UHGV virus genome: UHGV-1367341
From: a virus
Length of the DNA stretch: 54,338 nucleotides
Strand: one strand, 5' to 3'
The notes beneath the pieces are model-generated. The model worked only from the letters and a program-made list of their open reading frames with translations. It was not told the DNA's origin and made no database searches. The number at the start of each line of letters is the position of its first letter. Positions within the stretch are counted from its first letter, which is position 1. This document shows, piece after piece, positions 3,898-28,700 of this stretch. The position numbers and the translations under genes are program-made.

Positions 3898-4218
3898 TTA
3901 GTTATCTGCGCTTGAGTCGCCCTCCTTCTCCATAAGAGGTCGGGGAGTGCGTTGTGGTCGTGATACCCGAGTGCGTGCTTCGACGCGTCCCATTCGGGAG
4001 TTGAACTCGGTGAGGCAGTCCACCATGGATTGGTAGACCTCGTTCTGCCCCTTGCAGCAGTCCCGCAGTGTCGTGTGGTCCTCGATCAGCTTAGCGATGT
4101 CGGACTTCATGCTGGCGTGTATGCTGTCGAAAAGGCGGATGCGAGAGTGAATAGCCCAAATGAAATAGGCTGCGGTCAGGGCGCATACTATGAGCAGGCC
4201 CAGTGTTACGTATGTCAT
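3898..4218 (-). CDS. membrane-anchored hypothetical protein
   Basis: N-terminal TM helix LGLLIVCALTAAYFIWAI followed by a soluble domain. ATGA-type overlap with 4215..4775. Confidence 0.45.
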   Translation of the reverse strand: MTYVTLGLLIVCALTAAYFIWAIHSRIRLFDSIHASMKSDIAKLIEDHTTLRDCCKGQNEVYQSMVDCLTEFNSRMGRVEARTRVSRPQRTPRPLMEKEGDSSADN

Positions 4219-4775
4219 CCGTTAAATCCTTTGATAGGTGTTGCGATGTGGTGGATAGCCAGGAGCAGCGCGTCGCGGTCCTCCTGATTGGTGGCCCTTT
4301 GCTTGTGCTTAGGCAGTGTGAGTCGGTGACGCTTGCATACCATCAGGAGCTCCTCGTGTGTGATCTTCCCGTTCTTACCCTTCCACACCTTGCGTAGTGG
4401 TGGCTGGCAGATGAGCGGAAAATCGTAGTCGGTGATGAGGTCACGCAGGATCTCTCCAACCATGGCGCAGCGTCCGACGTTGTAGCCAGTCTTGGCTATT
4501 GCCTTGGCTTCCACCTGTCCACCGATGTGGCGGTTGTGCGATGTCCCCCACACATTCTCGAGGACGAAGCGGTAAGAGTAGTCGGTATCGAGATACTGCT
4601 CGTCCACCTCGTTGCGCCATTCCTGGAGCAAGCGTACGATCTTGGGGATTGTCAGCTGCTCCAGGTGAATAGTTCGGTCGGTGATATTGATGCAAGCCCA
4701 GCCCGAGCCCTGAGTGTCAGGGTCGATGCCGATGATCAGCTGCTTCTTTGGGCGGGTGGTTAGGTTGTTGCTCAT
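4215..4775 (-). CDS. RuvC-like Holliday junction resolvase
   Basis: IIGIDPDTQGSGWA matches the N-terminal catalytic Asp motif. VLENVW and DRDALLLAIHH resemble RuvC Glu and Asp-Asp-His motifs. Confidence 0.7.
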   Translation of the reverse strand: MSNNLTTRPKKQLIIGIDPDTQGSGWACINITDRTIHLEQLTIPKIVRLLQEWRNEVDEQYLDTDYSYRFVLENVWGTSHNRHIGGQVEAKAIAKTGYNVGRCAMVGEILRDLITDYDFPLICQPPLRKVWKGKNGKITHEELLMVCKRHRLTLPKHKQRATNQEDRDALLLAIHHIATPIKGFNG

Positions 4776-5269: not shown

Positions 5270-5659
5270 TTAGAATGGCAGATCATCAGCGGCTCCCGCT
5301 TGTGGTGCGGGTGCTGGTTGTGGTTGCGCAGGGGTGGCAGCTGGAGCGGTGGCTACCCGCTGTGGTGCTGGTGCAGCTTGCTGTGCTCCTGCCAGTACGA
5401 TGTTCCACGCCTTGATCTCAGTGTACCATCGCCCGTTGAACTCTCGGCTATCGATGTCTACGGAGACCATCACGTCCTGCCCCACCTGTGGTGTCTTGGC
5501 TACGTTGTCTCCGAAGAGTGAGATACAGACCTTGCGAGGGTATTGCCCGCCCTGCTCGAGGACGAACTCCTGCTTCTGCCATGGGTTGCCAGCCTTGGAC
5601 GTGCCTTGCTGGAGGGGGAGGACCTGCACGACCTTCCCGCTGATATTCATTTCGCTCAT
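5270..5659 (-). CDS. DUF3127-type OB-fold protein with SSB-like acidic C-terminal tip (DDLPF)
   Basis: MSEMNISGKVVQVLPLQQGTSKAGNPWQKQEFVLE...FNGRWYTEIKAW is the characteristic Bacteroidetes DUF3127 signature. The Ala/Pro/Gln-rich linker ends in AADDLPF, like the SSB C-terminal DDDIPF. Confidence 0.65.
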   Translation of the reverse strand: MSEMNISGKVVQVLPLQQGTSKAGNPWQKQEFVLEQGGQYPRKVCISLFGDNVAKTPQVGQDVMVSVDIDSREFNGRWYTEIKAWNIVLAGAQQAAPAPQRVATAPAATPAQPQPAPAPQAGAADDLPF

Positions 5660-6420: not shown

Positions 6421-7167
6421 TTATGACCTCGGCTGTGCTGACGCCAGTCGGTGGTCTGTTGATGATAAATGGACTATGACGCAGTCGCCTTGGATGCGAG
6501 AGGCAGTGCGGTCGTCGTAGAGGTTAGGACCGCTCAGTGCGTCGGGTGGATAGTTGCTTGTGATGATCGTTGGTCGGCTCAGTCGCTCTCCGTGCTGATC
6601 ACTGCGTCGGCAGATGATTGACGCTATGACGCTTGATCGTGATCCGTAGTACTGCGCCTCCTTGGGCTCTGCCCCGAGGTCTCCGATGTGCAGGACAAAG
6701 CGTCCCTCATCGAGATATTTCCCCGTCTCCTGGTAGTGTGCGGTGTAGTCCCTGGCGTGTGTCTCGCCATGGGTGGCACTGCTCCACAGCAGGGGTAGGT
6801 ATGACACGCTCCATTTGTCACGATCCTTGTCGTATTTCCAAAATGGGCGGTGCACTCCGACGATCTCGGAGAGGCGGTGCAGTAGTCGCACCAGCATGGT
6901 CTTGCCTGATCCCGTCGGACCCCACACGTACAAACCTCCGAAGGGGTTAGTGCAGGACGGGGAAGCGAGTAGCCAGGCGAGGGCTCTGCGGTATGCCTGT
7001 ATCTCGTCGGGCGATAGGTCGAAGGCTGGAGTCTCACGTCGTCCCAACTCGAGGAGGACGTCGAACGCGTCGTCAAAGGTGACGGGGTTCTTCATCAGCC
7101 GTGGCTCATACCCCTCGAAGGTGACGGGGTCAAGCGTTGCAAGCAGTTCTTCTTTCGTGAATGGCAT
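6421..7167 (-). CDS. DnaC/IstB-like AAA+ helicase-loader ATPase
   Basis: Walker A GPTGSGKT and Walker B-like VLHIGDLGAE. Placed directly downstream of the replication organiser gene. Confidence 0.65.
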   Translation of the reverse strand: MPFTKEELLATLDPVTFEGYEPRLMKNPVTFDDAFDVLLELGRRETPAFDLSPDEIQAYRRALAWLLASPSCTNPFGGLYVWGPTGSGKTMLVRLLHRLSEIVGVHRPFWKYDKDRDKWSVSYLPLLWSSATHGETHARDYTAHYQETGKYLDEGRFVLHIGDLGAEPKEAQYYGSRSSVIASIICRRSDQHGERLSRPTIITSNYPPDALSGPNLYDDRTASRIQGDCVIVHLSSTDHRLASAQPRS

Positions 7168-7179
7168 TGTGTCGTTGTG

Positions 7180-8265
7180 TTAGTCGGGATAGTCAGCGTA
7201 CTTTTCAGGGAAGTTGCGTTTGAGTACCGCTCGGTTGTCGTGGTCAAGTGCCAGCCACTTAGCCATTTCATCCTGTGGCGTAGGTGGCGCGCTTCGCTCA
7301 GGGTGGTATTCGGCATTGGTGTAGGTTGGTCGAGATTGCGAAGCTCGGGGGAATAGGGACTGCCGTTTGGCGTCCTCTTCCTTCTGACGCTTGTGCCAGG
7401 TGACCAGCGCGCTCTTCCAGCTCTTCATCTTGTTAGGGCCAACGCGCCAGCCGTTGCTCTCGTAGTGGGCTATGAACCTCTCGGGGTCTACTTCATAGCC
7501 CGCCCTCTCTATCTCAGCTCTGACTTCATCGAGGGAGGGCGGGGAAAAGCGCGTCGCTTTTTCCCCCTCTCTCTTTATGTCTTCTTGTCTTATAGTCTTG
7601 GGGCTTTGCCCCCCTATTATCCCCCCATCTACCTTACTTTTTTGGGCGTCTACCTTGGTGCTACCTTCCTCGCTACCTTCCTCTACCTTACTTTCTACCT
7701 TGGTCGTACCTTCCTCTACCTTACTTTCTACCTTACTTCTACCTTCCTCTGTACCTTCCTTTACCTTGGTGCTACCTTCCTCGCTACCTTCCTCTACCTT
7801 ACTTTCTACCTTGGTAGGTCTGTACTTTCTACCGCCCTTTGCCATGCGTTCGCGTGCCTCGGGAGATAGCTGTCGCTTGGATCGGTAGGTGGCTGGCTCG
7901 TCGCTTGGATCTTCCTCGGTGTGACTCTTCTTGATCACCCCCTCGTGGAAGTCTCGGAAGAGTCGTCGTGAGTAGAAGTATTCGCGTCCATCATCACCCA
8001 TCTCGATGACGAAGAGATCGAAGTCATGTATGATCGACCATATCATAGAGTGCTTCTTCGTGTGGATGAGCGCGGCTACGTAGTACTCGTCGAATTGCAT
8101 TCGAGGCTCTTTCCCTTCGTCTGCTGATAGCTGACTGAGTAGCTCAATGATGAGCCAGTAGTTTCCATATCCCTCAGCTCCATGGATAGCCATGAGTCGT
8201 CGGAGCTTTAGGTCTAAGCTGGCATGAATATCGTGGCGAAAATATCTGTCGGAGCACATACACAT
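7180..8265 (-). CDS. replication initiation / replisome organiser protein (DnaD-like C-terminus) with internal tandem-repeat linker
   Basis: C-terminal FIAHYESNGWRVGPNKMKSWKSALVTWHKRQ resembles the DnaD-domain tail. N-terminal winged-helix-like region. Central KVE/EEGS peptide repeats are encoded by the DNA repeats at 7629..7835. Start uncertain; an alternative ATG lies at 8193. Confidence 0.55.
   Translation of the reverse strand: MCMCSDRYFRHDIHASLDLKLRRLMAIHGAEGYGNYWLIIELLSQLSADEGKEPRMQFDEYYVAALIHTKKHSMIWSIIHDFDLFVIEMGDDGREYFYSRRLFRDFHEGVIKKSHTEEDPSDEPATYRSKRQLSPEARERMAKGGRKYRPTKVESKVEEGSEEGSTKVKEGTEEGRSKVESKVEEGTTKVESKVEEGSEEGSTKVDAQKSKVDGGIIGGQSPKTIRQEDIKREGEKATRFSPPSLDEVRAEIERAGYEVDPERFIAHYESNGWRVGPNKMKSWKSALVTWHKRQKEEDAKRQSLFPRASQSRPTYTNAEYHPERSAPPTPQDEMAKWLALDHDNRAVLKRNFPEKYADYPD
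7629..7835. repeat. iteron-like tandem array of CTACCTT / GTACCTT heptamers, including a perfect 54-bp direct repeat (7651..7704 and 7762..7815)
   Basis: The two 54-bp copies (7651..7704 and 7762..7815) are identical when read from the sequence. About 14 copies of (C/G)TACCTT(C/A) occur inside the replication gene. Confidence 0.8.
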
Positions 8266-8283: not shown

Positions 8284-8604
8284 CTATTTACGTCTCATCT
8301 TCTCGGCTCTCCTTTTGAGGTCGTTGAAGATCGTCGTGTCGAGGATTATTGTTGATCGTCCTTCCTGGGTGAAGGCTTCGGGATAGTCTTTGATGCGTTG
8401 TCTGAGTGTTGCTGAGTTTCGTATGCCGAGATACGCCATCACTTCCTTGCGTCCGCTGATGGTGCGATGCTGTGGATCTTGTCGATGCCTCAGCTCTTCT
8501 CTGAGTGCCTCAGCTCCCTCTCGCATAGCATTCATGATGAGCTGCCGTAGATCCTCGGGGCTCATCTGAATGGTGACGGGGGTGTAGGTCTGTGTGGTTG
8601 GCAT
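8284..8604 (-). CDS. small putative DNA-binding protein (HTH-like)
   Basis: ISGRKEVMAYLGIRNSATLRQRI resembles a helix-turn-helix. Basic C-terminus. Confidence 0.4.
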   Translation of the reverse strand: MPTTQTYTPVTIQMSPEDLRQLIMNAMREGAEALREELRHRQDPQHRTISGRKEVMAYLGIRNSATLRQRIKDYPEAFTQEGRSTIILDTTIFNDLKRRAEKMRRK

Positions 8605-8605
8605 A

Positions 8606-9349
8606 TCAGAATGGTGTCTTATTGATCTCTATTGTCATGTCAGGTGCTGCTATCATCGTGGGCAGCCCCGTCGCCTCTTCGATTGATTGGCGGCAACGCT
8701 CTGCATTGGTGTTGCCTGCGGAGAGGTGTATGAGCAGTATCTGTCGTGAGGTGGTCAGGTCATTTGCCCGGAGCGTCCGTAAGCAAGTGCCGTAACTCAT
8801 GTGTGATCTTGTCGTGCGGTGGTACTGCGCTGGGTGGATAGCCCCTGATGCGAGTCGCTCCTTGATGAGGTTCTCGCTGTAGTTGCATTCGATGAGCCAG
8901 TGCGTCACCTTGGGGAAGCGGTATTTAAGTAGGTATGAGTCGGTGAGGAATAGCAGCCTCCCCATTTCTTCGTGCTCGATGAGGAAGCCCAGGGGCTCCT
9001 CTGCGTCGTGCTCTACGTCGAAGGGAAGGACCGAGAAGCTACCGATCTTCACTGCTCGCTTGCTCGTCAGTATTCGGAGCATGGGGTCGTCACCGAGCTG
9101 TAAAGCGTCGGCCGTCCCCTTGGAGCAGTAAAGCGGTACTCTTCGGCTGGTGACCCAGCGGGCCTCGCGGGCATGGTCTCCGTGCTCGTGTGAGAGGAGA
9201 CACCCCGCGAGGTGCTGTAGGTCAAAGTCCAGGGACTGGAGTAGCTGCTGCTTCTTGACTCCGCATTCGATGAGGAGCGTTTCCCCTGACGACGTACGAA
9301 GTATGTAGGCATTGCCTGCGCTGCTCGATCCGAGGACTGAGAGAGTCAT
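8606..9349 (-). CDS. metallo-beta-lactamase-fold hydrolase (putative nuclease partner of RecT)
   Basis: HxHxDH motif SHEHGDH plus downstream His/Asp ligands. Immediately downstream of recT with a 1-nt gap. Confidence 0.75.
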   Translation of the reverse strand: MTLSVLGSSSAGNAYILRTSSGETLLIECGVKKQQLLQSLDFDLQHLAGCLLSHEHGDHAREARWVTSRRVPLYCSKGTADALQLGDDPMLRILTSKRAVKIGSFSVLPFDVEHDAEEPLGFLIEHEEMGRLLFLTDSYLLKYRFPKVTHWLIECNYSENLIKERLASGAIHPAQYHRTTRSHMSYGTCLRTLRANDLTTSRQILLIHLSAGNTNAERCRQSIEEATGLPTMIAAPDMTIEINKTPF

Positions 9350-9350
9350 A

Positions 9351-10322
9351 TTAGAATGGTGCTTCTACTTGTGCTGCCTTGGGATTGCCTTCTGCCTTTG
9401 CTTCGGTAGCTGGTGGCGTGGTAGGCGTTGCCGTGGGTGGCTCGTAGATCTCGCCCGTCTCTCCGTCGAAGTCGAGGGGCTCGCTTGCGGTCTTGCTCTC
9501 GATCTCGTGAGCGACTTTGTTTGTCACATCCTCCACAGAGGTGTATTCGTCGCGGTCTACATAGTGTGCTTCGCCTTGCTCATCGATGACAGCTTGGTCG
9601 CTCTTGATAGCGTTCTGCATCTCTACGGAGAGTGGAGCGTACTTACTTAGCAGGAGCTTCAGTACGGTCTTCTTCGCCATAGCGTCAAAGTCCGTTGTCC
9701 ACTTACTGGAGGACTTTACCCAAGCCTTCGTACTCTTGTAGGTCTCGGAGTATCGGAGGGCGTGGGCTTCGACTTCGTCACGTGTCATATATAGGCACTT
9801 CGAGAAGCCGTTGGTCAGGCGGAAGTAAGCGACGTAGCCTATGATGGGTAGCGTCTCTCGGTTGGGCTTGGCTACGAAGCGGGTCTCCCCTGTGAGGAGG
9901 TCGAAGTCTTGAAGTTCACCCTCCCTGACTTCGGTGACATTGATCGCTTGGAACTGGCCGCTTCGGATGGCAAGCTGTATGAAGCCCTTGTATCCCAGCT
10001 GGAACTGCGCCTGTGCTGTGCCGTTCTTTCGGTTGTAAGGGATGACGTAGGCAAAGCCGAGGTTTGGATCGAGTGGCAGATCAAGGGCGGTCGCCTTGAT
10101 CCCTGCATGGATGATCGTCAGCGGGTCGCAGGCTTGTAGCCCCGTGCTGTTTGCCACCAGTGCTGTGATGTTGTTTACGAAAGAGGACTTCTTCGCAGAG
10201 AGCACCCGCTGGAGGTAGTCTTGGGTGCGCTGGTCAGCGAGGATATGGTTGAAGCCACTGAGCGTGTTGGCTTGGGGCTGTGCAGGCGCGCTGGCCGTTG
10301 GTTGGATTGTCTGTGGTGTCAT
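9351..10322 (-). CDS. recT: RecT-family single-strand annealing recombinase
   Basis: FAYVIPYNRKNGTAQAQFQLGYKGFIQLAIRSGQF...VREGE matches the RecT core. Acidic/Pro-rich tail ending EAPF. Confidence 0.8.
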   Translation of the reverse strand: MTPQTIQPTASAPAQPQANTLSGFNHILADQRTQDYLQRVLSAKKSSFVNNITALVANSTGLQACDPLTIIHAGIKATALDLPLDPNLGFAYVIPYNRKNGTAQAQFQLGYKGFIQLAIRSGQFQAINVTEVREGELQDFDLLTGETRFVAKPNRETLPIIGYVAYFRLTNGFSKCLYMTRDEVEAHALRYSETYKSTKAWVKSSSKWTTDFDAMAKKTVLKLLLSKYAPLSVEMQNAIKSDQAVIDEQGEAHYVDRDEYTSVEDVTNKVAHEIESKTASEPLDFDGETGEIYEPPTATPTTPPATEAKAEGNPKAAQVEAPF

Positions 10323-10328
10323 GTTGTC

Positions 10329-12320
10329 TTAATTGATATGTGTGACGTTTAACTCCTTGTCGTCGGAGACGCGGAGGAGGATGATCTGTGATGTGAGGTC
10401 GTCGGGGGGGGTCTGTATGCTCTCGCTGTTGTCGACGAAGACGGGCGCGCATACCTGGTGGTGCTCACTGAGTACTCGGATAATCTCGAGCCCTGCCGTG
10501 ATGCGGCTTGCGGTGTTGGCTGCCGTAATGGGCACTCCGTTTACCAGCGGCTGGCAGGTCTCTGAGGGGAACTCTCGGTTCTTGTCATCGATGGTGTACT
10601 CGAAGAGTCGGAAGGTCACGCCACGGAAGCGTGAGTTGATCACTCGCTCGCACTCCTCTACCTGATGCAGTGCCAGGCGGGTTGCTTCATATTCTTCCTT
10701 CTCTGCGTCGGCTATCTGCTGTGCGATTGCCTTGGCTTCGTCCTCGAGGATCTTGATGCGGTTTGTGTAGTCGTCCCACTGATCCTGTGAGGCGAGTAGC
10801 TTCTTTATCTCGTCGCGTCGGTCGGAGAGCTTCTTGCGCTTGGCGGTGTATGCCTCGGTGCTGTCGGTCTCAATCGTTGCGTTGTCGGCTTGCTTGAGTA
10901 GCTCCTGGATCTGCTTCTCGAGTTCGTTGTAGCCTGGGAGCTGCTCAGCTGGTGTGGGCTTTACGGCTTCCTCTTCGGGGAGATCGAGGAGCTCGGCTTG
11001 CTGCTTGATGAGTAACGCATTCAGCTTGTCGGCTTCCTCCTCTCTCTGTAAGATGAGAGCGGCGCAGTTGTCGGCAGATGCTTCGCACTGAGTGAGCTGC
11101 TCTTTGAGAGTTGCTCCGCTTTGTGCGAGGGTGTCGAGTTGTGCTTTCTTTTGACTCTGCCATACCGCCTCAGCCTTTGTGATCTGCTCGTCGGGGAGCT
11201 GCTGGTGGCAGTGTGGGCAGGTTGTCTCACCATTATATATGGTAGCATGGAGTGTCATCCACTCTTCGCGCATGGTGAGCACCTGGTCATTGAGCTTTAC
11301 TTTGTTTCCTGCGAGCACCTTGTGCTTCTCATTGAGTGAGGCGACCTCGCTCTTGGCTCGCTCGATGAGCTGCTTCGTCTCGTCGATCTTGTGCTGGAGC
11401 TCCCGACGATGTGCCCCTCGCTGGTAGGTCTCTTCGTCGGCTCGCTTGTGCTCCTCGGCAATGAGCTGACGCTGCTTGCTTCGGAGCTCCTGGATCTTGG
11501 CTTCTCGTTCGCTGGCCTCCTTGTCCTGCTTGCGCAGTCGCTCGGAGCTGCTGGCGATTGCCTTGTCTATATCGGTAAGCTCAGCTTCGATCCCTTCAAG
11601 CTCAGGCTCGAGCGTCTTGCGGTCCTGCCATTGTGGTAGCAGGATGCGCGTCTGATCGATCTTCGGCTGGATCTTGGCTGCGTCCTCCTTGAGCTTCTTC
11701 TTCCGAGCTGCGATGCGTCTGCGGAAGTCTGCCAGGCTCTTGCCATTGAGCTTGTCTACCAGCCCCTCCCACTCGGGAGAGGATGCTGCGATCTCCTCGA
11801 TGCTTGGCGTGTGTGCCACGTCGAAGAGGATGGCGCGCTGGTCCTCCCATTTCAGGGAGGCGAAGTACTCGGGGTTGGTCAGCAGCTTGAACGTCGTCTC
11901 ATCTATCAGAGCGGAGAGACGCTTGCCAAACTCCGTGACGCTGACGGGGACGTCATCCCAGTAGCAGTCGGTGTGGTGGCCTCGGAAGACCTCATCGGCT
12001 TGTCCGCGGGGCTTGACCCACTCCTCTACATAAGCGCGTCGGAGTGTGAGGGGCTCGCCATCTACGGAGAGTGTTACGGATACTTCGCAGGGGGCTTTGT
12101 CTGTGGTGTTGCCAGCCTCGTCGTAGCTCTTGACGTACTCGTCCTTGCGTCCGTTGCGGTCCTTACCGAACAGACACCAAAGGAAGGCATCGAGGTGGCG
12201 ACTCTTGCCTGAGCCGTTAGGCCCTGCAATGATTGTCTCGTTGGGAGAGAAGGTGGTGGTGCGTTCTCGCTCACCCCTGAAACCTATCATGGTGAGCGAC
12301 GTCAATCGAATTGTCTTCAT
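10329..12320 (-). CDS. SbcC/Rad50-like ATPase with coiled coil and CxxC zinc hook
   Basis: N-terminal Walker A GPNGSGKS. Long charged heptad region interrupted by TTCPHCHQQLP (CxxC hook). C-terminal ABC-like segment VFVDNSE. Confidence 0.65.
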   Translation of the reverse strand: MKTIRLTSLTMIGFRGERERTTTFSPNETIIAGPNGSGKSRHLDAFLWCLFGKDRNGRKDEYVKSYDEAGNTTDKAPCEVSVTLSVDGEPLTLRRAYVEEWVKPRGQADEVFRGHHTDCYWDDVPVSVTEFGKRLSALIDETTFKLLTNPEYFASLKWEDQRAILFDVAHTPSIEEIAASSPEWEGLVDKLNGKSLADFRRRIAARKKKLKEDAAKIQPKIDQTRILLPQWQDRKTLEPELEGIEAELTDIDKAIASSSERLRKQDKEASEREAKIQELRSKQRQLIAEEHKRADEETYQRGAHRRELQHKIDETKQLIERAKSEVASLNEKHKVLAGNKVKLNDQVLTMREEWMTLHATIYNGETTCPHCHQQLPDEQITKAEAVWQSQKKAQLDTLAQSGATLKEQLTQCEASADNCAALILQREEEADKLNALLIKQQAELLDLPEEEAVKPTPAEQLPGYNELEKQIQELLKQADNATIETDSTEAYTAKRKKLSDRRDEIKKLLASQDQWDDYTNRIKILEDEAKAIAQQIADAEKEEYEATRLALHQVEECERVINSRFRGVTFRLFEYTIDDKNREFPSETCQPLVNGVPITAANTASRITAGLEIIRVLSEHHQVCAPVFVDNSESIQTPPDDLTSQIILLRVSDDKELNVTHIN

Positions 12321-12878: not shown

Positions 12879-13083
12879 AGTCGTATCTCTTATTATTATA
12901 TGTAGTGTCGTCAGGAGGCTTCCGAGCCTCGGGTGTTCCGTGCCTGCCACGGCTTCGCCCTGCGCACATTAGGTCGCAGGCTAACGACAATGGGTTAATC
13001 ACGTGCAGGCCTTTCACCTGCAGATTAATTCGTATCGCCATTGTTTGTATCAAGTATGTCAAAGATCGCTGTCGCTGGAGGGC

Positions 13084-13299
13084 TTAGCCTTCGGAAGAGG
13101 TGGTTGTGTTCAGCTTTTCAGCTCTCTCGAGAGCGTTGTAGACTGTGTTCATACTCACCTTGTACTTCTTGACGAGAGCCTTTTTGCTCTGCCAAGCCCC
13201 CCTACCTTGTGCCAGGAGTCGCTGGTACTCAGCCTGTATCTTTAGAGCACGCTCATCTAACTTTTCAGAGTGGCTCTTAGGAACTCTTATTTCAGCCAT
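13084..13299 (-). CDS. Cro-like small HTH regulator, divergent from the repressor gene
   Basis: 71 aa. KKALVKKYKVSMNTVYNALERA is HTH-like. Position and orientation are classic for cro. Confidence 0.5.
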   Translation of the reverse strand: MAEIRVPKSHSEKLDERALKIQAEYQRLLAQGRGAWQSKKALVKKYKVSMNTVYNALERAEKLNTTTSSEG

Positions 13300-13474: not shown

Positions 13475-14203
13475 ATGAGCGAGAAAAATTTTTCTGCCCT
13501 TGCAGAATACTTCAAAAGCAAGGGCGTTACACAGAGTGCTATTGCCGAAAATCTCGGAGTTAGCAAGGCCTATGTAAATTCTCTGATGACTGGAAAGAAG
13601 GCATTTGGCAAGGCGCAGGCGGCTAAGTGGGGCGACCTGTACGGCCTCTCACCCTCGTGGTTGCTCACTGGGGAGGGCGAGATGCTGAAGGATGGCGCAC
13701 CAGCTACACAGCCCGCACCAGAAAACAGCGCACGCCCACTCGTAAGTAGCGACCGCGATTGGGTAGAGATACCTCTTGTGCCACACCGCGCGAAAGCAGG
13801 AGCGCTATCGGGCTTCGGGGACCCCTGCTGGGAAGAAGACAAACAGACGATGCCTGTGCTGATCGACAAGAGGCTGAAAGGAGATTACCTGCTCTTTGAA
13901 GTGTCTGGCGACAGTATGGACGACGGCACCAGTACAGCGTTTCTCGATGGTGACGTGCTTCTCTGCCGTGTCCTTCCTAAAAGCGACTGGCAGTATGGTA
14001 TCAAGAAGCGCTCTGCTACGTATTGCGTGATCGCAACGCAGGCGGATGGTATCGTACTGAAGCAAGTGACGCACCACGACAAGTCAGAAGGAACGATCAC
14101 TTGCCACTCTCTAAATCCCGACTACTCGGACTACGACCTGAAGCTAAGTGAAGTGCAAGCCCTCTTCTACGTGGAGCGACTTGCACAGCGGGCTTTGGTG
14201 TAG
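13475..14203 (+). CDS. CI/LexA-like repressor (N-terminal HTH plus C-terminal S24 peptidase domain)
   Basis: HTH is SQSAIAENLGVSKAYVNSLMTG. Ala-Gly cleavage site in HRAKAGALS. Ser nucleophile in FEVSGDSMDDG. Lys in GIVLKQV. Confidence 0.85.
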   Translation: MSEKNFSALAEYFKSKGVTQSAIAENLGVSKAYVNSLMTGKKAFGKAQAAKWGDLYGLSPSWLLTGEGEMLKDGAPATQPAPENSARPLVSSDRDWVEIPLVPHRAKAGALSGFGDPCWEEDKQTMPVLIDKRLKGDYLLFEVSGDSMDDGTSTAFLDGDVLLCRVLPKSDWQYGIKKRSATYCVIATQADGIVLKQVTHHDKSEGTITCHSLNPDYSDYDLKLSEVQALFYVERLAQRALV

Positions 14204-15831: not shown

Positions 15832-17187
15832 TTGCATAATCTGCAACAACTCACAACCACGCACAACATGCTACCTATACGTCGCACCTGCCGCTTCCTT
15901 CTTGATCCACAAAAGGGGTGGACGGCATACAAGATACGCTACCGCATCCGCTACGGAGGGTACATTACCACCGTGGCCGTGGGTCATCGCGCAGAGCCCA
16001 GCAAATGGAGTGCAGAGTCCGAACGCTGTATGAAGAATACCAGCCACGGGGAGAAGCGCACACCAGCCGCTGCAATCAATCGCGCTATCCAATACGTCGA
16101 GGAGTCAATGGAGCGAGCCTTTACCTACTTCGAAGGAGAGGAGCGACTACCAAGCCCCGAGGAACTCAAAGCCAAGTATAACGAGTACCTGCAGTCAGCT
16201 CTCGGCATCGAGGAGGCCAAGGCGCAGGCAATACTCCCCGAGGACAACAGCACTATCGTAGCAGTCTTTGACGCCTTCGTCGCATCGGAGAGCGTGAGAC
16301 GTAGCTGGAGCGAGAGGCACAATGCGAACATACGCACGGCACGTATGCACGTATCTGAGTATGCAGGTAAGGACACCCTGGACCACATCAGTAGCGAGTG
16401 GGTAGCAGGCCTTATCACCTACCTCACCACGAAGCGAGGACTCCTCAACACATCAATAGACAAGACGCTGCGCATACTAAAGAGTCTACTCTACTGGGCA
16501 CAAGGCCAGGGGATATATGAAAAGGATTACCGACGCTTCTTCGACGTACGCCTCAAGGGTATCGACGCAAACAGAGCCGAAGTATATCTCACCTGGGAAG
16601 AGCTGAGCAGTCTTGTCTCCGTGGATCTCAGATTACATTCAGAGCGAGTAGCCCGCGATCTCTTCTGCTTCCTCTGCTTTACAGGGCTTCGATACTCCGA
16701 CCTCAAGAAGCTCACACACGAGAGTATCACGCCCACCAGCATACGTTACTTTGCACAGAAGACCGACCAGCTCATCGAGGTAAACCTCAATGACCACGCC
16801 CGCGCTATCCTCGCAAAGTACGAAGGAGGGGATACCCCACTACCGCCAATGGCGGAGCAGCGACTCAACAGAACGCTCAAGAGCGTCTGCGAGCAGGCAG
16901 GTATCAACGCGCCCGTCACACGACTACGATACTCAGGACGCCACCGCATCGAGGAGACGCTGAAAAAGTATGAGGTCATAACATCACACGTCGGCCGCCA
17001 TACCTTCGTGGTGCAGGCCCTCACACTCGGCATCCCCTCTGAGGTTATCAGGAAGTACACGGGCCACAAGACCGAAGCAACTATGCGCCCGTACATCGCA
17101 ATAGCCGATACCCTCAAGGCTCAAGAAATGGAAAAGTTCAATCGTCCCCTGCTCGAGAAAAAGAGGACGAATAGAGGACGATTTTAG
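15832..17187 (+). CDS. tyrosine-type site-specific integrase
   Basis: Catalytic motifs in order: GLRYSDL (Arg), HVGRHTF (His-x-x-Arg), YTGHKTEATMRPYIAI (His ... Tyr). Bacteroidetes-style N-terminal arm-binding region. True start may be ATG 15868. Confidence 0.85.
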   Translation: MHNLQQLTTTHNMLPIRRTCRFLLDPQKGWTAYKIRYRIRYGGYITTVAVGHRAEPSKWSAESERCMKNTSHGEKRTPAAAINRAIQYVEESMERAFTYFEGEERLPSPEELKAKYNEYLQSALGIEEAKAQAILPEDNSTIVAVFDAFVASESVRRSWSERHNANIRTARMHVSEYAGKDTLDHISSEWVAGLITYLTTKRGLLNTSIDKTLRILKSLLYWAQGQGIYEKDYRRFFDVRLKGIDANRAEVYLTWEELSSLVSVDLRLHSERVARDLFCFLCFTGLRYSDLKKLTHESITPTSIRYFAQKTDQLIEVNLNDHARAILAKYEGGDTPLPPMAEQRLNRTLKSVCEQAGINAPVTRLRYSGRHRIEETLKKYEVITSHVGRHTFVVQALTLGIPSEVIRKYTGHKTEATMRPYIAIADTLKAQEMEKFNRPLLEKKRTNRGRF

Positions 17188-17560
17188 TAGCGTTATATTG
17201 CTTTCTATTGTTTCCTATTATCTCGAGCCCACTACGAAAGCCCGCTCCACAAGCGCAATAGAGGATAATAGAGGGTAATAGAGAGTGATTATTGATACTC
17301 CCACTCTGGGTACAACTATGCTTTGCAATTCATTGAATTACAGGCATATACAAGACGAAGGATTAAGCAGGGGACGATTTAGGGGACGATTTTATACCCG
17401 CCTTCTAAATTAGATAGGTTTACATTTGGGCTGAGAAATGTCCAAGGCGTGTCCAAGATAAAACCATTTTCGTGACCTCACGGAATGGTACGGAGACGCA
17501 AGAAGGTGAGAAAGAGAGCTTTGCAAATGTCCAAAGCGAATGCCCCAAAACTTCATCTAC
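17188..17560. promoter_or_regulatory. candidate attP region with arm-type direct repeats and a core-like palindrome
   Basis: Tandem AATAGAGRRT x3 at 17257..17286 plus ATAGAGGA at 17171. GGACGATTT(T)A x3 (17174..17187, 17371..17382, 17383..17396). (A/G)TGTCCAA x3 (17437..17459, 17527..17534). Palindrome CGTGA-CC-TCACG at 17471..17482. Perfect palindrome TTTGCAAA at 17520..17527. Confidence 0.4.
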
Positions 17561-19769: not shown

Positions 19770-22700
19770 ATGCCAAACGATAAGACGCAAAAGAACTTAT
19801 CGAGCCTCCACAACACGCTGGAGACCATGGGATATGAAGTACCCAACATCGACCAGTTCACAAAGTATATGCGCAAGGAGAAGAACCTGCGCACAGTGTA
19901 TGATGCAATAGCCTCTGATGGAGGGTACGAGCTTCCCGACTTCGACACCTTTAAGGCAAACATGGGGTGGATAAAGCCAACGCCAGCGGGAGTGCCTACA
20001 CCACTGAGACCAAAGGATCAGCTCGCACCAACTGGAAAGCCTGATGCGCCCGCTACTCCCTTTGGCTTTGACCTCTCCGCAAATCCCAAGAAGCCCTCGC
20101 ACGCACCTAAGGCGCGCCTGGGCTTCCCACGTCTCGACAAGAAGATGCGCCCTGTGCAGGAGGTGAACGACCCAAGTGTACCCCTGCTCAAGACCACACG
20201 AGACGTCGCACAAGATGAGAATGGCAACGTCGTAAACGTGGTACAGCCCGAGCTTGTCCCCGACTTCGACCCCAACAATGGCGGGGTGACCGCTCCCAAG
20301 GCTCTCTTGGACGTAACGACGGGTAAGACTATTCGCCCCACCGAGCTGAGCAAGGAGGAGGTAGACGGCTACAACGCTGGCAATATCGACGCGGTAAAAG
20401 ATCCCAAGCTGCGTCAGGCTTTGAAGGAGGCTAATGTCATCTACACACCTGACGTTGATATGGAGAAAGTCCACAGAGACCAGGTGCGCGACCTCGAGCA
20501 GGAAATCGATGCAGACCTAAAGACGGCTTACGATAGCTTCACAGACAAGGCAGCAGCCAAGGCGAAGGACACGCGTAACCTTATGCGCTTTGGTCTTGCC
20601 ACTGCTGGTGCGTCAATGGGTGGCGGAGCTACCACAATGGGTATGCACGCTAACCCACTTGCTGTGGAGAGCGACCCTGAGATCTACATGCTCAAGCTCG
20701 CAAAGCACAATATCCAAGACGCTAAGAACTACATCGCGGAAGCTGACCATAACGCGCAGGAGGGGACATTCTCCAAGTGGTTGGAAAGTAGCTTTGCTGG
20801 AGGTGCTGCCCGCGGCTTCGCACAAAAGCTCTTTGATACTCGCACATGGGATATGGGTATCGGTGATGCTGGTGAGGCGGCTTCTATCAAGGCTGCCGTA
20901 AACAAAGCGGACCTCGGGGAGAAGCTGACGCCAGCAGAAGATAAGCTGCTGCAATCCATGGTTACAAAGATGGCTGTCGAGGCATACTTCAATAGTCAAG
21001 TGGGTCATGGATATACAGCTGGGAGTGTGTCGGCATACTCAATCCCCTTCATGCTCGAAATGGCTGTCAATCCCGTATCTACATCGGGGAATGCTATCGG
21101 AGCAAAGCTTATGCGCTATGCTGTCCGTAAGTTCGGACTTAACGTAGCGGGAAAGGCTCTACGCAAGAAGGCCGTAAAGGCTGCCGTGAAGTATGGTATA
21201 GGAGGGCTGACGAGTGCAGCGGTATCATCCGCAGCTCTAACTGCAACGAGTGGTACTGCGCACGTGGCGGCAGACGCAACAAGCCGAAATACTGGAGAGC
21301 TGAAGTTCGACTACAAGGCAGACCCTGAAACGGGAGAATTGCGAGCTCAGTATAGCGGTCACGAAGAAGGTGACGACGCACTCACGGCAACGGGTAAGGC
21401 GTTCTTCATGCGCTTCATGGAAAACTTCAGCGAATACTCGGGCGAAGCCTTAGCACCTATCGCGGCAGGCGTTGCCAAGGGCGTCGGAGCTGGAGCAAAG
21501 GCCGCTGGTAAGGCAATCGCTTCTCACATGGGTAAGGCTGGGGCTAAGATCCTGGATGCTGGACGATGGGGGACAAAGGCCGCACGTGAGCTCATCGACA
21601 ACATCAGTGCGTCGGAGTTCGGCCGCACTATAACGGCACTCGAGAAGAAGGCGCACTATAATGGTAAGGTGCTGGAGTTCGCAGAAGAAAAGATCAGCGA
21701 CCTGGCGTCCGTGCTTATCGGGGATAAGGACCTATCCACCGACAAGGGCAAGGGCTTCTTCAACCTGGACGATAATATCGATACCTTCCTCGGGGTGTCA
21801 CTTACGGGTGGCGTGATCAGTGCCGCACAGACCGCAGGCTACTTTGCTGGCGGTGGTGCGCGTGGAATGGCCCGCTATCAGATCGGGCAGAGCGAGGGTG
21901 CAGTGTGGAGTACGCTCACCACGGATGAGCAACGCAAGGCGTGGGACGACGTGCGCAGACAGATCCTTCTCCAGGATGGTAAGGAGCAGGTAGACGCTGT
22001 GAAGTCCGCACTCACCAACCCCAACTTCAACGCAGAGCAGCGTCGCGCTATCCTCGACTACACTAAGTCGGTGCAGACCTACAAGGGTATGAGCGAGTAC
22101 CGACGCAAGCAGAGCGAGGATACCAACACAGACCCATTGCAGAACGAGCTGGCAGACTCTTACGATAAGGGCGCAGAGATGACCCAAGCCGAAGAGATGA
22201 GCCACGCACGCAGCTGGTATGAGTTCGCACAGCAGAAGGCGGCAGAGCGTCTCGGGGTAGATGCTGAGGCTCTCGATGAAATGGGAGCACCTGACCAACT
22301 CACGCTCGACCAGGTGGCACAGCTACGAGAGGAGCACAGCGAACAGGCAGTGCAGTCTTATGTGGACTACCTCAATGCACGTGCTACCTACGAGGGTATG
22401 ATCGGGAGTGTCTCCCAGGGCATACAGGCTGAGGCTGCACAAGCCGAGCAGGCAGTGCGCTCACAGCAGCACAAGGACGGAACGCTCCGTCGTGCCACTC
22501 TCCGTGGTACGGAAGGGCAGCACGTCGAAGTGCATATCAAGGATGGCGACCTTGTCATGGATGAGGAGGGCCGTATCGATACCGACAAGTCCAGTAAGGA
22601 CTTCATCGTTCGCGATAACGAGACGGGCGTCGTGCGCTTCGCCAGCATCGATGACATTATCAGTGCAGAGCAGCCCACGAGTGCCGACGACGCAGTGAGC

Positions 22701-25700
22701 GAAGCGGTCAATGCCGTCTACGAACGCAGAGAGAAGGAAGCGGCCGACGCTATCAACGGGACTATCACCCCGCAGGTAGGAGCAGTATACAATCTCCTCG
22801 ATGCTGATGGGAACCCCCAGCAGATCGCTATCCAACAGGTAGGCCAAGACGGCACACTCGACGTGGACTACTCGGGAGTGCCCCACAAGATGACTACCGA
22901 CGAACTGCAGGCCATGGCGGACAACACACGCGCCCGACAGATCGAGAATGAGCATGCAGCCCAGGTACAGCAGGCCAAGGCTGAGGAGAGAGAGGAACGC
23001 GAACAGGCAGGCCTCCCACGCTATGCACTCAATGATGAGCTGACCATTCGCACCCCCGAAGGTGAGGAGGTCACAGCCTACGTCACCAACGAGGAGGATG
23101 CCGACGGGAATATCGAGGTGTACTTTAATGAGCCCTTCGATGGGAAGAAGGTGCACCTCTTCACTAAGGACTACCTCGACGGGGTGGTAGTGGGTACACG
23201 CCTCAGCCCCGAAAGCAACGGGAACACGCAGGCCGTGGAAGCTCCAGCCACTCCAGCAGCACCAGCCTTAGCGCAGGTACAGCCCGCAGAGGAGGGAGCT
23301 ACAACAGAGGAGGAAGGGCCCGCACCAGCACCTACCCATGAGGAGGAAGTAGACGATGCGCCAGCTGACCCCAACGATGAGAGCCTCTCACCCGAGGAAG
23401 CATACGAAGCGGTGTTGCGTGCAACCAATGGTGACGTAGTCCTCGCTCTCGAAGTCATCGAGAGCACAATTGCCGACAAGGAGAAGGCACTTGCCAAGGC
23501 CAAGAAGGCCAAGCCACGAAGTGCCGACACTATCGAGGGTAAGATCCAGGCGCGCGAAGAAGTAGCTGCTGGTATCGAAGCCGCAGAGACCTCACTCGCA
23601 CATTGGCAGGCCGTCGCTGAAATCGCAGCCGAGCAGGTGCAGGAGGAAGTGGCAGAGGTAGCCGAGCCCGTCGCTGAGCAGACAGAGCAGGAGAGCGAAG
23701 AACCTACGGCCGAGCAAGAGCCCGCAGAGGAAGAGGCTGCCGAGGAGCAAGAGCCCGAGGCGGAGCAGGAGGAAGAAGCTATCCCCGCATCCGAGGACAC
23801 CGCACCTGAATGGGGTAAGGACAATCCAGCCGACGCACGCGCACGTGGGTACATTAAGGTAGAAGGCTTGCGAGTAGATCGTCAGGGGCAGCTCTCCGAC
23901 GCACTCATCGGCAAGGAGTCTGACGTGAAGTTCGCAACGAATGACACACAGCAGGCTCACTACGCTATCATCGAAGCCGAAAGCCTGCAGCCAAGCCACA
24001 TCAGAGGATACCAAAATCAGCTGCACTTTATTCCCGAGGCACAGCCAAAGGATCGAAGCGACGTTGTCAGCGAGCAGGCGGCAGTACGTATCGCAGCTAA
24101 TATCAATCCCGAGGAGATCACAACGAGTGCCACAGCTTACACGGGTGCTCCTACCATCAACGCGCGTGGCGAGGTGATCCAGGGGAATAGCCGTGCCGAC
24201 GCACTGCGTGCTGTGTGGGAGTCGTTCCGTGATACGAGCGGAGCGAAGTACAAGCAGTACCTCATCGAGAATGCAGAGGCCCTCGGTATTGACCCCGAAG
24301 CTATCGAGGGGATGAAGTCCCCCGTGCTGGTGCACCTTGCCGACGTCAGCGACGAGCGAGCCATCGAGCTGGGGCAGTACCGACAGGCCGACATCGAGAG
24401 CGGTGGCGTCGAACGTATCAACCCACAAACACTCTATGCTAAGATCGGGGAGAAGCGTGATACCTTCATTCGCTTCCTACTGGGGACAAGCGACGACGAC
24501 CTCAGCCTTGCCGAGTCCATCACACGCAATGCGGCTGAGACACTGAGCTGGCTCAACCGCCAGGGCTTTATCTCTGACACGCAATTCCGTAGTGCCTTCG
24601 GTGCTAAGGGTGAGATCACGGCAGAAGCTAAGGAGGACCTCCGTAATGCTTTGTACCGCTCCTTCTTCGAGGGCGCGCACAACAGCCTGGAGGCAGAGTT
24701 CTACAACCTGCCCAAGCGCACCCAGCAGGCACTACTCCGCGTCTCATATCGCGACCAGCAGAGCCCAGCAGATGCGCACTTCCTCGATGAACTTCAAGCA
24801 TCGGTAAGTGCATACAACGCCCTCATGGGGTACACTCCATTCGCTGAGGCTAAGACCTTCGAGGATGCAGAGCGTGCTATCGAAACGTGGATGCGCTTCT
24901 CGGGTGACCTCATTACGGGTGAGGTGAACTCCGAGCAGTATAGTAACTTTGCTGTACAGCTCGCACTCCGCTATAAGTTCCTAACGCAGAAGGAGCTTAT
25001 CTCAAAGCTCAATGCGGTGTACGACGCAGTGCAGGCCGTCTCCGAGGACACCCTCTTCGGAGAAGGCGAGGTAAATCCTAAGACGCTTGCCGAGGCGGTG
25101 AGCGAAGTGTTCAGCATAAATATCGACAACAATACAGAAGAAGATGGAAGTACTGGAAGCAGCTCTCCTGGCAGCGACCTTGAAGGGAGCAATGGCGGGG
25201 AACAAGAAGGACAAGGAACACCTGGCGGCAATGAACAAGATCAGAGCCGAGCAGGGACGCCCGAGCGTAGAGGAAGAGCTGCAAGCGATCCTCAAGAAGG
25301 GGAAGGAGTAACCACCGAAGCAGAAGAAGTAGCCCCCGAAGCGGGGGACACCCAGGCGAGTGATGCGACTGGGGAGGGCTATCGTTTGTCTGCTATTGCG
25401 GCTAAGCGAGGAGGAAACTTCTTTGAGAATAGTGAGGGAAGTATCGACTTAGTCAAGATCTCGGACAATGTGTTTGAAGCTATTGGTATCAAGCCATTGC
25501 CAATGAGAATGACCGAGGCGATGGCTCAGCATATCATTAAGCAACATGCAAAGGAGCTGGGTATATCAACGCAAGAGGAGGCAGTCGCCTTTGTTGTTGG
25601 TATCATGCAGCACTTCGACCACGTACGAGAAGGGAACAAACCCAACACCTACATCTTCTCCATAGAGAAGGGTCGTAGCCGTACGGGAAAGAGAGCGGTT

Positions 25701-28700
25701 ACATTAGTCTTGCCGTCTAAGAGTGGGGAATATCTTGGTGTGTCTTCCTCGGGGTACGAGAAGGTAAGCAGATTAAAAGAAAGAGCGTTGCTTTGGGAGG
25801 AGGGCGCGAATAATATGGCTCCTACTACAGAGACCGCCTCTGCAAATGTTCCCACCCCATCAGCCACACAAGGCGGAATGACTGGGGGCAGCGCATCAAA
25901 CCAAAGCAATGCCCTTTCGCAAGGCAAAGATAGCAAAAAGGATACAGCTGAGGGAGAAGCGAATGATGGCAATCAAGATGATCTTTCAATTGAAGAGAAG
26001 GAAGCTCTGCTATCCAAGGCTAAGCAAGAGCTTGAAGAGAAGGAGGCAGAGCGCACAGCCGTAGCGGAGCAGGCTATTGCTCTCATGAAGGACTACTACG
26101 ACAGCGGTGCAATCCCCGGCATGGATAGTGGCGAGTTTCATGGGCAGGCTACCCTTATCCTCATCGGCTTCAAAGACCGAAGTAATCTTGAGCTGATGAA
26201 AGCCCCTGGGCTTAGTGAGCTTCTACCCAGCCTGTATAAGCTGGCAGACGAGGCGAGAGAGAAGAAGATGCTGGTCCGAAAGTATGAGAAGGAGCTCAGC
26301 CAAGCAACGGAAGAAGAGGGCGAAACGTCCACCTATAACGATGCTATCCGAGATGAGCTTGTCAATACGATGCGAGATGCAGGTATCGAGGTCGTCACGG
26401 ACGAAGCTGAAGGTCAGGCGGTGCTTGATGCAGCGCGCGCTGGTGAGGCACAAATGCAACGAGCCTACCATGGGACGGATGCTGACTTTGAAGCCTTTGA
26501 CCATAGTCACATGGGAGAGGGCGCAGGTGGTCAAGCATACGGCTGGGGCTCTTACTTCACCGAGGAGGAGGGCGTCGCTCGGTCCTATGCAGGTGGTGGC
26601 TTCGTATATGAGGCAGAGCTGCCCGATGATACGGGAAGCAACTACCTGCATTTTGAGAGCAAGCCAAGCAATAAGGACATCGCCCGTGTAAAGAGGGAGC
26701 TTGTGGAATACATCCTTCGCAATGACGAAGAGGGTATGTACGACTATCCTCAAGGCAAGGACGACTTGACGCAGGAGGTGGATGACGCAGGAGAGCCTAC
26801 TACATGGAGAGACCTTTATGGTACGGTATCTTCGCACCTTGGCTCAGATAAGGAGGCCAGCGCATTCTTCCACTCCATCGGGTATGTTGGTATCCAATAT
26901 AACTCTTCTGAGACCGATGGGGGAAAGAAGAACCTCGTCATCTTCGATGAGAGCGACATCGCCATACAATCAAAGGTGCGCCTATTCAAGACCAGCAGCG
27001 GAGAGGCGTACGGCTTTGTCAAGGATGGGAAGATCTACCTCGACCTCAAACACGCAACGGCCGAGACGGCTATCCACGAGTACACGCACCTATGGGCGAG
27101 TGCCCTACGTCGAGTAAACCCTCGTGCGTGGAAGTCTATACGGAAGCAACTCAAGGGCTTCGAACTGTGGGCGAACATCGAAAGTAGATACCCCGAACTC
27201 AAGGGTGATGAAGATGCCTTAGCAGATGAGGTGCTTGCTCAGTACTCGGGCAAGCGCGGTGCTCAACGCATTGAGGAGGAGATGCAGAAGGAGGATAATG
27301 CTACGGACCTTGTAGGAAAGGCGCGTGTGCTCGCAGCGTTCAATAGCCTCAAGGAAGCACTCAAAACCTTTTGGACTGAGGTCGCAGACTTCTTCGGGAT
27401 GGACTATTATAAGTCCGTGGAAGACGCAGCTGACAAGGCTATGAGCGACCTTCTGCGTGGGGTAAATCCTAATGCAGTAGAAGCAAAAAAGAAGGAGGCT
27501 ACGAAGAAGAAGCCCACGAAGAAGTCAACCGCGAAGAAGGAGATAGCTACGTCAAGTGTCATCGCCCCCGACAGCGAACGATACAATGGGTATATCGTGG
27601 CTCTCCCCAAGTCTGGGAAGGCTGGCGCAGAAGTCGGTAACATAGAGGAGTTCGTAGCAGCAGATGGAATGCGAGAGGGGCTGACGGTTATCTACCAAGC
27701 CCCCGAAGGGTTTGCCGTGGCCAGCAACGGCACTATGGCCATTGCAGACAAAACGCAGTTCGACGTGTACAAGAAGGGGAAGGCGTACAAGCTGGACGGG
27801 ACAACGATTGATGCTGGGGCATGGAAGCCCCTCAAAGATAAGTGGCAGTCATTCGTCTCTACGGAAACGAGAGGTGATAACTCCGACCCATTCACAGAGT
27901 CCCCCGTCAAGATACCCCGACTATCCAAGTATTTAGATCAAGTAGAGCAAGACCTCTACAACAGATGGAAGGCTGACAAGAGCGGAGGGCGTACAAGGGA
28001 TAGCTTCAAGGCGTATCGTAGTCGTGCATTGGTGTCTATCCCCAATGGGCGAGGAGAATACGTTAGTTATCCATATACAGATCTGAGAACCATAGCCTTG
28101 GCCGCAAAGCGATTAGGCGTTACATCCTTCTTCGTGGAAGGGGATCTACACTTTGGCTCTTCCGAACAGCCTGGCCGTCGTCTTGTCGGCAATGGTAGAC
28201 TCGGATCTGTGGTACACGCGGGCTATTTTGAAACAAGAGACCATAATGCATCCAAGAGGAAAGAACTCTCCTATCTGTATGATGAGTCTGTTGGAGTCAA
28301 GGATATAGACGAAGGGGTACGCATGCAGAAGGAGCTCGAGGAGAAGGACGCGAAGTACGCAGAGATGGACGCCCAGGTGAGCGCAGCCAACAACGTGAGC
28401 AATGCGGAGGAGGATACCGAAGAAGCTAATGACGAGGAGGTGCGCTACCGCTCCGACGAGTTAGACGAAGTTAGTAATCGGTTCAATGCGGAGCTTGCTC
28501 AGCTCACAGAAGAGAATTCAGATAGCACTATCTTCTCCCTTGGCATGCCTTCTTCCGAACTTATCGCAGGCGGAGTAGCTCCTAAACTTATGCGTCTATA
28601 TGGGAACAAGGTGATCAAGAAGATGAAGAAGCATGGATTTGCTTTGTCTGACCTTCTGGATCTGCCGAAAGCTGTTGCACAGCCTATTGCAGTGTTCTCA

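Follow-up and report, generated by a model that had tools for sequence, protein, structure and literature searches.

Why should the middle of a replication gene be built from one six-base word? The question arises in the UHGV virus genome UHGV-1367341, a stretch of 54,338 nucleotides that was analysed whole and is called the window here. A gene on the minus strand at 7180..8265 encodes a replication initiator of 361 residues, with a Lin1244_N/DUF4373 N-terminal domain, a disordered linker and a conserved C-terminal domain. The DNA that codes for the linker carries, on the same strand at 7629..7835, an array of the word AAGGTA, which reads TACCTT on the plus strand. We conclude that the array is probably the initiator-binding (iteron) part of a phage replication origin, 7527-7835, embedded in the linker-coding DNA of the initiator's own gene, a reading that leans on sequence comparison and on analogy with known origins. 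The first-pass annotation of this DNA had proposed a lambda-like iteron origin within the initiator gene. The embedded iteron-type origin gains support from comparison, because the word is read in two frames, its core is better conserved than the spacer, the layout recurs in distant homologues, and a lower-G+C tract and a palindrome accompany it; the units, however, are not lambda-like.

A phased array of one six-base word

TACCTT occurs 16 times on the plus strand at 7630-7812, in one orientation throughout. Read on the coding strand they are 16 exact copies of AAGGTA, with a degenerate 17th unit at the 5' end, TACTTTCTACC, at 7823-7833, which brings the array to the end coordinate (7835) given in the first-pass annotation. 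The start-to-start steps between exact copies are, in order, 21, 11, 12, 10, 12, 11, 10, 12, 11, 12, 10, 11, 12, 10 and 12 bp; the mean period is 11 bp, and all steps lie between 10 and 12 bp save the single step of 21 bp. The base before the word is C in 13 copies (CTACCTT), G in two (GTACCTT) and T in one (TTACCTT), and 15 of the 16 fit (C/G)TACCTT, the form of which roughly 14 copies were counted earlier. Two identical 54-mers separated by related DNA had also been described. The perfect repeat is there on the minus strand at 7651..7704 and again at 7762..7815, an exact match when verified, and the DNA between the copies is related sequence. Tandem Repeats Finder describes the array with overlapping periods of 12, 33, 45 and 78.

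The whole window holds 43 copies of TACCTT on its two strands, against 16.7 +/- 4.5 in dinucleotide-preserving shuffles, none of which reached 43, and 16 of the 43 fall within 183 bp. A chance origin of the array is excluded. When helically phased hexamer arrays were sought throughout the 54-kb window, the array at 7630-7812 was the only one found, with 16 copies where 50 block shuffles produced no more than 3. It overlaps 7557-7806, the 250 nt with the strongest purine/pyrimidine asymmetry in the window (20% purine on the plus strand, z = -5.3). A window-wide search for a second array or for clustered TACCTT/AAGGTA, as a second origin or operator sites, found 27 copies outside the array and no clustering; shuffles gave 16.7 +/- 4.5 with a maximum of 27, a value that the outside copies just equal. 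Two of these copies, at 13203 and 13389, fall in the regulatory region. A nucleotide search of the array region against 50,697 phage records gave no match, and a scan of species-representative genomes recovered no relative.

Selection on the DNA word

The 16 units are found within codons 152-211 of the initiator, between its confidently modelled N- and C-domains, and the peptide that they encode runs ...TKVESKVEEGSEEGSTKVKEGTEEGRSKV.... On the coding strand the word is read as AAG-GTA (K-V) at nine sites and as xAA-GGT-Axx (E-G-S/T/R) at seven; in relatives the second frame also yields Q-G-K/T/S. The third frame, xxA-AGG-TAG/TAA, gives a stop codon with 84% of the observed seventh bases and is never used by the array. 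Because of that stop, TAG or TAA, the spacing toggles between 10, 11 and 12 bp around a mean of about 11 instead of remaining constant. The toggling looks like the form that sites spaced by about one helical turn take when they coexist with an open reading frame (ORF).

An extended motif was derived from 271 units, taken from the window and 17 related genes. The A at position -3 of AAGGTA is 99% conserved in both frames, the two bases after the word are mostly G-A, and the consensus unit is A-S-N-AAGGTA-G-A, 11 bp long. Across the same set, units are spaced by 12 bp 95 times, by 11 bp 74 times and by 10 bp 72 times, and the average is again about 11.

Orthologous arrays of equal length vary at 3 of 234 core columns and at 39 of 249 spacer columns, a 12-fold difference (Fisher p = 2.4e-9). 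The word is kept in initiators that are merely about 35-44% identical. It is kept in the P0126 type, where the N-domain is about 35% identical (L020-L023, with 4-9 copies), and in the P0122/P0123 type, whose C-terminal half differs. In a further pair of loci (L024/L025) the linker peptide is differently coded, as NKVD/KQGE, and the AAGGTA spacings of 11, 21, 12, 21, 43, 11 and 22 bp lie near whole helical turns. By this comparison the repeats are selected as DNA, not only as peptide.

Copy number and the case for neutral expansion

All close relatives retain the array at the same place. The DNA loci fetched for relatives carry 10-25 copies, and K-V plus E/Q-G units in 206 close-relative protein clusters number 5-36, the commonest value being 22. 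The searches brought up over 400 related proteins and many contigs of about 55 kb; a second large-database protein search, with an alignment as query, yielded for the most part the same close family and little further diversity. Relatives vary in copy number and the 54-bp duplication is not common to all of them. The perfect 54-mer pair is, to judge from these sequences, a recent internal duplication within an array of variable copy number.

A recent expansion of this kind would also suit a neutral or protein-level account, in which the array is a low-complexity minisatellite in a disordered linker, homogenised by slippage and gene conversion. The linker is indeed predicted to be disordered, the number of copies varies widely, the neighbouring element at 7600-7629 tolerates frame-shifted readings (see below), and the ori-coded linker peptide of plasmid pSK41 is dispensable (PMC5703833). 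Slippage alone, however, leaves the two-frame hexamer and the avoidance of the stop frame unexplained. Nor does it fit core columns that are 12-fold less variable than the spacer between orthologues, spacings near whole turns in a differently coded linker (L024/L025), or the independent arrays, non-triplet and often of exactly 11 bp, that unrelated lineages carry at the same position of the gene. We regard neutral or protein-level expansion as quite improbable.

Elements beside the array

Next to the array, at 7600..7629 on the minus strand, lies a conserved DNA element that reads G6-ATAATA-G6-C-AAA-GCCCC on the coding strand, or G6-ATAATA-G6-CAAAGCCCC, and contains a small GGGGC/GCCCC inverted repeat. 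It is translated as GGIIGGQSPK in 29 close relatives, the window included, and as GGDNRGGKAPK in 177. Its homopolymer runs (G6/G7, G6/G7 and C4/C5) differ by 1 nt between relatives (L001-L027), and because three such indels compensate one another, about 20 nt of near-identical DNA is translated in two frames. The element is also kept in the L021-L025 group, in which the N-domain is about 35% identical. One uncompensated slip in a G-run would truncate the initiator about 30 codons on, just past the palindrome.

The candidate DNA-unwinding tract follows at 7567..7599 (minus strand), 33 bp with a G+C content of 33%, the coding strand being 82% purine. The 40-bp duplex-stability z at 7560-7599 is +2.3, and this is the weakest segment inside the gene body beside the array. 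Beyond it lies a palindrome at 7541..7565, with an 11-bp stem and a 3-nt loop (GGGGAAAAGCG-CGT-CGCTTTTTCCC on the plus strand) and an imperfect extension over 7527-7579. Its lower-coordinate arm codes for R-F-S-P, the opening residues of the conserved C-domain, and 81 nt separate the last iteron from the F codon. A promoter and terminator scan near the array gave counts not above those of shuffles; the lone notable match is the palindrome, which is terminator-like on the antisense strand.

A hairpin beside purine-rich repeats raises the question of whether the features act in the mRNA, by translation pausing, by stability or by frameshifting at the G-runs. The palindrome would fold in mRNA too (RNA-fold z of its segment, -3.6), and the G6/G7 runs with their compensating indels flank ATAATA. 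At the array itself, however, an Rfam scan found no RNA family (a tRNA scan found none either), and the repeats, being 80% purine, have no predicted RNA pairing partner. Helical phasing at 11 bp and an A+T-rich gap are features of DNA geometry. An mRNA-level role may be conceivable for the palindrome, but it leaves the 11-bp geometry unexplained, and as an account of the array it is very unlikely.

The same layout in distant homologues

The C-domain of the initiator (RF-PPT-EEV...Y-SNGW-VG-NKMK-WK...W) marks out a very large family (15,286 representatives at E <= 0.001), in which it is joined to N-domains of at least four families, Lin1244_N, DUF6291, DUF1376 and Phage_rep_org_N among them. 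Homologues that share the C-domain only, with other N-domains, bear hexamer arrays of their own in linker-coding DNA. The words include AACCAA in seven copies (L044), AAACCC in six (L062), AAGCAA in five (L074), and AAACGC (L098), GCCAAC (L186) and ACGTTA (L060) in four each, the last with spacings of 12, 12 and 11 bp. Many of the homologue arrays are spaced by exactly 11 bp and hence run through all three frames. The hexamers of these homologues are stop-free in every frame, which is consistent with the stop-avoidance account of the toggling seen with AAGGTA.

For homologue tests an array was defined as at least four phased copies of a hexamer, and ORFs from the same loci served as controls. 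Arrays were present in 10 of 54 distinct genes in the first set, against 2 of 320 control ORFs, and in 16 of 77 genes in an expanded set, against 18 of 545 controls (p = 2.5e-7). Most control matches in the expanded set are antisense or overlapping ORFs that cover the same arrays, so the test is conservative.

The gap after the homologue arrays is 39-142 nt long, mostly 76-94 nt; one case with 12/24-bp spacing has a gap of 2 nt. G+C content of the gap is mostly 21-38%, usually under the gene mean (26-47%), and the gaps of L044, L062 and L074 contain tracts of AATGTA/AATGAT. After the gap comes a palindrome whose centre lies immediately ahead of the R-F codons at the start of the C-domain. Of 74 distinct genes, 30 have their longest perfect palindrome within this 12-nt junction zone, where about 1.7 would be expected. 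Stems of 7 bp or more are present in the zone in 37% of genes, and at random positions in 1.1%. Folding z is below -2 in 24 of 59 distinct junction segments. The arms of the palindrome change together by lineage, as in AAAAGCG/CGCTTTT, AGTGAAACG/CGTTTCACT, CAAACCG/CGGTTTG and GGCGGGAAGCG/CGCTTCCGCC. Scans with two distant homologues, P0129 and P0146, did not recover the DNA of their own close relatives, and the peptide repeats there are seen at protein level only.

These regularities permit a broader and more tentative reading, which we think possible but rather doubtful, that a large superfamily of phage initiators carries in its linker-coding DNA an origin cassette of fixed geometry: lineage-specific iterons phased at about 11 bp, a lower-G+C gap of mostly 76-94 nt and a co-varying palindrome into which the opening codons of the shared C-domain extend. 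If so, a copy number of 5-36 together with G-run slippage could tune replication strength or incompatibility, or yield truncated regulatory initiators.

The initiator protein

A Pfam scan of the 361-residue product gave one match, Lin1244_N/DUF4373 (PF14297), over residues 8-90 with 26.2 bits against a cut-off of 25; relatives of the protein carry a precomputed PF14297 assignment. PHROGs assigns the product to PHROG 2562, 'replication initiation protein', and its C-terminal part to an unnamed family. The gene had earlier been called DnaD-like. The array does lie inside 7180-8265, but a DnaD/DnaB_2 domain was detected in this product neither by sequence nor by fold, and that label gives way to Lin1244_N. 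A search of the paper library for DUF4373/Lin1244_N turned up no functional study.

An AlphaFold2 model was built on an alignment of 50 sequences. Its N-domain, residues ~10-118, has a predicted local distance difference test score (pLDDT) above 90, with helices at 19-50, 60-66, 72-81 and 100-117 and a beta-hairpin at 86-98. The C-domain, residues ~240-304, is confident as well. The linker, ~145-225, has a pLDDT below 50, and it is exactly this disordered linker for which the repeats code. The modelled N-domain resembles winged-helix proteins. Weak Foldseek matches in the PDB (E = 0.07-0.4) are winged-helix proteins that include 4pt7, 4pql and 5kbj, which we take to be N-domain structures of staphylococcal RepA, and ORC2. 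Against the predicted viral structures of BFVD there were 18 matches at E <= 1e-3, annotated as replication initiator, replisome organiser, Lin1244_N, DUF6291 and, in one case, 'lambda GpO N-terminal' (E = 3e-4).

The gene directly downstream of that for the initiator, at 6421..7167 on the minus strand, encodes a DnaC-like helicase loader (PHROG 50, E = 1.5e-11; PHROG 3277, E = 1e-6; weak Pfam AAA). The DnaC-like loader that the first-pass annotation placed next door is thus upheld.

Proposed mechanism and weighing of the origin reading

Selection on the word at the level of sequence, its helical phasing, and the recurring layout of iterons, lower-G+C tract and palindrome are direct observations. 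The steps that would make an origin of them are proposals that we infer by analogy. The Lin1244_N initiator, made from the same gene, would bind the 11-bp A-S-N-AAGGTA-G-A units cooperatively, and sites about one helical turn apart would give a wrapped nucleoprotein complex over about 180 bp. Strain, with transcription of the gene and supercoiling as aids, could then open the 33-bp A+T- and purine-rich tract at 7567-7599. The conserved C-domain would then recruit the DnaC-like loader and the host helicase. The palindrome at 7541-7565 may mark the far edge of the origin, where it might form a cruciform or serve as a loading site.

Several observations weigh against this account. The candidate unwinding tract of the window is short, only moderately A+T-rich and weak (33 bp, 33% G+C, z = 2.3), and at several intergenic sites of the window the duplex is less stable; in the distant homologues the tract is clear. 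GC and AT skew show no origin mark, with G exceeding C across nearly the whole window. Foldseek found no significant match for the initiator model in the PDB, the best having E = 0.07. Part of the 5-36 spread in copy number may be an artefact of short-read assembly. The initiator gene of Porphyromonas phage005b has no comparable array, and the initiator family is therefore not uniform. Lastly, the same hexamer is found across strongly diverged N-domains or with different C-domains. One word shared by diverged initiators does not fit the co-evolution of one initiator with one iteron, and the binder could therefore be another protein, which complicates the first-pass proposal that the initiator itself binds the array. 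AAGGTA might be bound by the N-domain, by a basic segment, RERMAKGGRKYRP, that is conserved and lies just upstream of the array, or by some further factor.

The same observation hints at a binder other than the N-domain. On a rival reading the array would be a cis-acting site for a different phage or host protein with some other role, for example in autoregulation or silencing of the early operon, in copy control by handcuffing, as a centromere-like site or as a packaging signal. DNA-level selection and phasing at about 11 bp would suit other nucleoprotein arrays too; the parC centromere of plasmid R1 has 11-bp direct repeats. The arrays, however, are always tied to the initiator linker, in four N-domain families, and are followed as in origins by a lower-G+C tract and then a palindrome. 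Neither the replication module nor the rest of the annotated ORFs included partition genes, and the phage integrates (integrase, CI-like repressor, prophage copy). A centromere of the ParR/parC type was rejected, given an integrase and an integrated relative and no partition genes among annotated ORFs. The array lies about 26 kb from the portal gene, and terminase genes were not identified among annotated ORFs. A role other than that of an origin is in our judgement unlikely.

Gene neighbourhood and other features of the window

Upstream of the initiator gene, all on the minus strand, lie genes identified with Pfam and PHROGs for an SbcC-like ATPase (10329-12320), RecT (9351-10322) and a metallo-beta-lactamase-fold hydrolase (8606-9349), and a 106-residue ORF (8284-8604). 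Downstream, by the same databases, are a DUF3127 protein resembling single-stranded-DNA-binding proteins (5270-5659) and a RusA-like resolvase (4215-4775). The counterpart of the hydrolase in a prophage relative (L015) carries the Pfam domain Anti-Pycsar Apyc1, and that in the Porphyromonas phage is annotated as an anti-Pycsar nuclease. The window annotation includes a CI-like repressor (13475-14203) and an integrase (15832-17187), and one relative is integrated in a 469-kb scaffold with identical gene order, a prophage copy. The SbcC, RecT, initiator and loader genes, with the repressor, the integrase and the integrated relative, point to an early replication and recombination module of a temperate phage. 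Its host is probably of the order Bacteroidales, as the closest named relative is a P. gingivalis phage and as the DUF2693 RNA, DUF3127 and DUF4494 are features that we take to be associated with Bacteroidales.

A full-length DUF2693 RNA (Rfam RF02956) is present at 12905-13067 on the minus strand, with 168 bits against a gathering threshold of 81 (E = 8e-34). It sits between the early operon and the repressor gene, and a Mor-like ORF of 71 residues is at 13084-13299. Just past the integrase gene, 17155-17400 takes in DNA that ranks among the least stable in the window, and two short tandem repeats, AATAGAGGAT x2.7 at 17257-17283 and AGGGGACGATTT x2 at 17369-17392, which could be attP arm-type sites. 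A single ORF of 4584 residues at 19770-33524 on the plus strand, a quarter of the genome, encodes a 'polyvalent protein' with LPD14, ddrB-ParB, MuF_C, ART-PolyVal (ADP-ribosyltransferase) and LPD38 domains, and a P22-like portal gene (33536-35506) comes directly after it. In the structural region, an ORF of 612 residues at 46061-47899 contains runs of 9-bp repeats at 46658-46815 on the plus strand (CCAGGTCCT, GGTCCTATT and similar). These would encode collagen-like G-X-Y repeats, and the ORF is probably a tail fibre.

Implications

If the origin reading is true, a concrete origin of about 300 bp (7527-7835), with its initiator and loader, would be in hand for widespread temperate phages of the human microbiome. 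For thousands of uncharacterised phage genomes it would also supply a rule for predicting origins in initiators with the shared C-domain, namely 11-bp-phased linker arrays with a lower-G+C tract and then a palindrome after them. The arrays would also illustrate clearly how DNA-binding sites and a reading frame can constrain one another. In phagemids or shuttle vectors, the predicted origin might be used as a part.

Comparison with known origins

The nearest named homologues belong to the Porphyromonas gingivalis phages phage005a/b, whose initiator is 46.8% identical over the N- and C-domains. The phages share a syntenic series of SbcC-like, RecT, Apyc1-like, 'replication initiation protein' and 'DnaC-like helicase loader' genes, and a palindrome at the R-x-F junction (z = -6.4) that follows an A+T-rich (GATAAA)4 tract. 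Their initiator differs in having 236 residues and at most two 13-bp repeats, 21 bp apart. Phage005b (L016, PP754928.1) carries at 6719-7090 a 24-bp repeat x15.5 (CAGTGCAACGGTTCGGGCCTGGGG) in a hypothetical-protein coding sequence that lies about 2 kb downstream of the genes for initiator and loader; no counterpart of it is present in the window.

In phage lambda the origin lies midway within the O gene, with iterons followed by an A+T-rich tract, and lambdoid phages vary in iteron number, six in place of four adding 13 residues to O (PMC7466680). The window is alike in that its candidate origin lies mid-way in the initiator gene, that repeat number alters protein length, and that a loader gene, P in lambda and DnaC-like here, is immediately downstream. 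The iterons of lambda, however, are about 19 bp long, number 4-6 and have internal dyad symmetry, whereas here 11-bp direct units with a 6-bp core are present in 5-36 copies, and the A+T-rich tract of the window is weak. Membership of the lambda O (Phage_rep_O) family was rejected, as the product has no Pfam lambda-O domain and its gene has 11-bp direct repeats without dyad symmetry.

The replisome organiser G38P of Bacillus phage SPP1, a member of the pfam09524 family, binds AB boxes in its own gene 38 (oriL) beside an A+T-rich unwinding element and works with the loader G39P (PMC5737612). Repeated boxes in the gene of the initiator or organiser itself and a phage-encoded loader are common to the two systems, and the weak candidate unwinding tract of the window would correspond to the A+T-rich element. 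G38P is nevertheless of a different Pfam family, and neither the sequence nor the organisation of the AB boxes is related to the array here. SPP1 also encodes its own helicase, whereas none was identified here among the annotated genes of the module.

The closest architecture is that of pSK41 Rep, a RepA_N protein of Firmicutes plasmids. Its winged-helix N-domain binds repeats that lie centrally in its own gene, in the dispensable linker-coding centre of rep, and a separate C-domain contacts host replication proteins (PMC5703833). The order of domain, linker and domain with central repeats is the same in the window. Differences are that pSK41 has four Rep boxes in place of a long 11-bp array, and is a Gram-positive plasmid where the present genome is a temperate phage probably of Bacteroidales. 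RepA_N membership was rejected, since the initiator has no Pfam match to PF06970 and its likeness to RepA folds is weak (E = 0.07-0.3). An origin inside an initiator gene is thus of a well-known kind; what is new is the family, Lin1244_N/DUF4373, and the form. That form is one of 11-bp direct units with a 6-bp core, in 5-36 copies, with a spacing shaped by the avoidance of stop codons.

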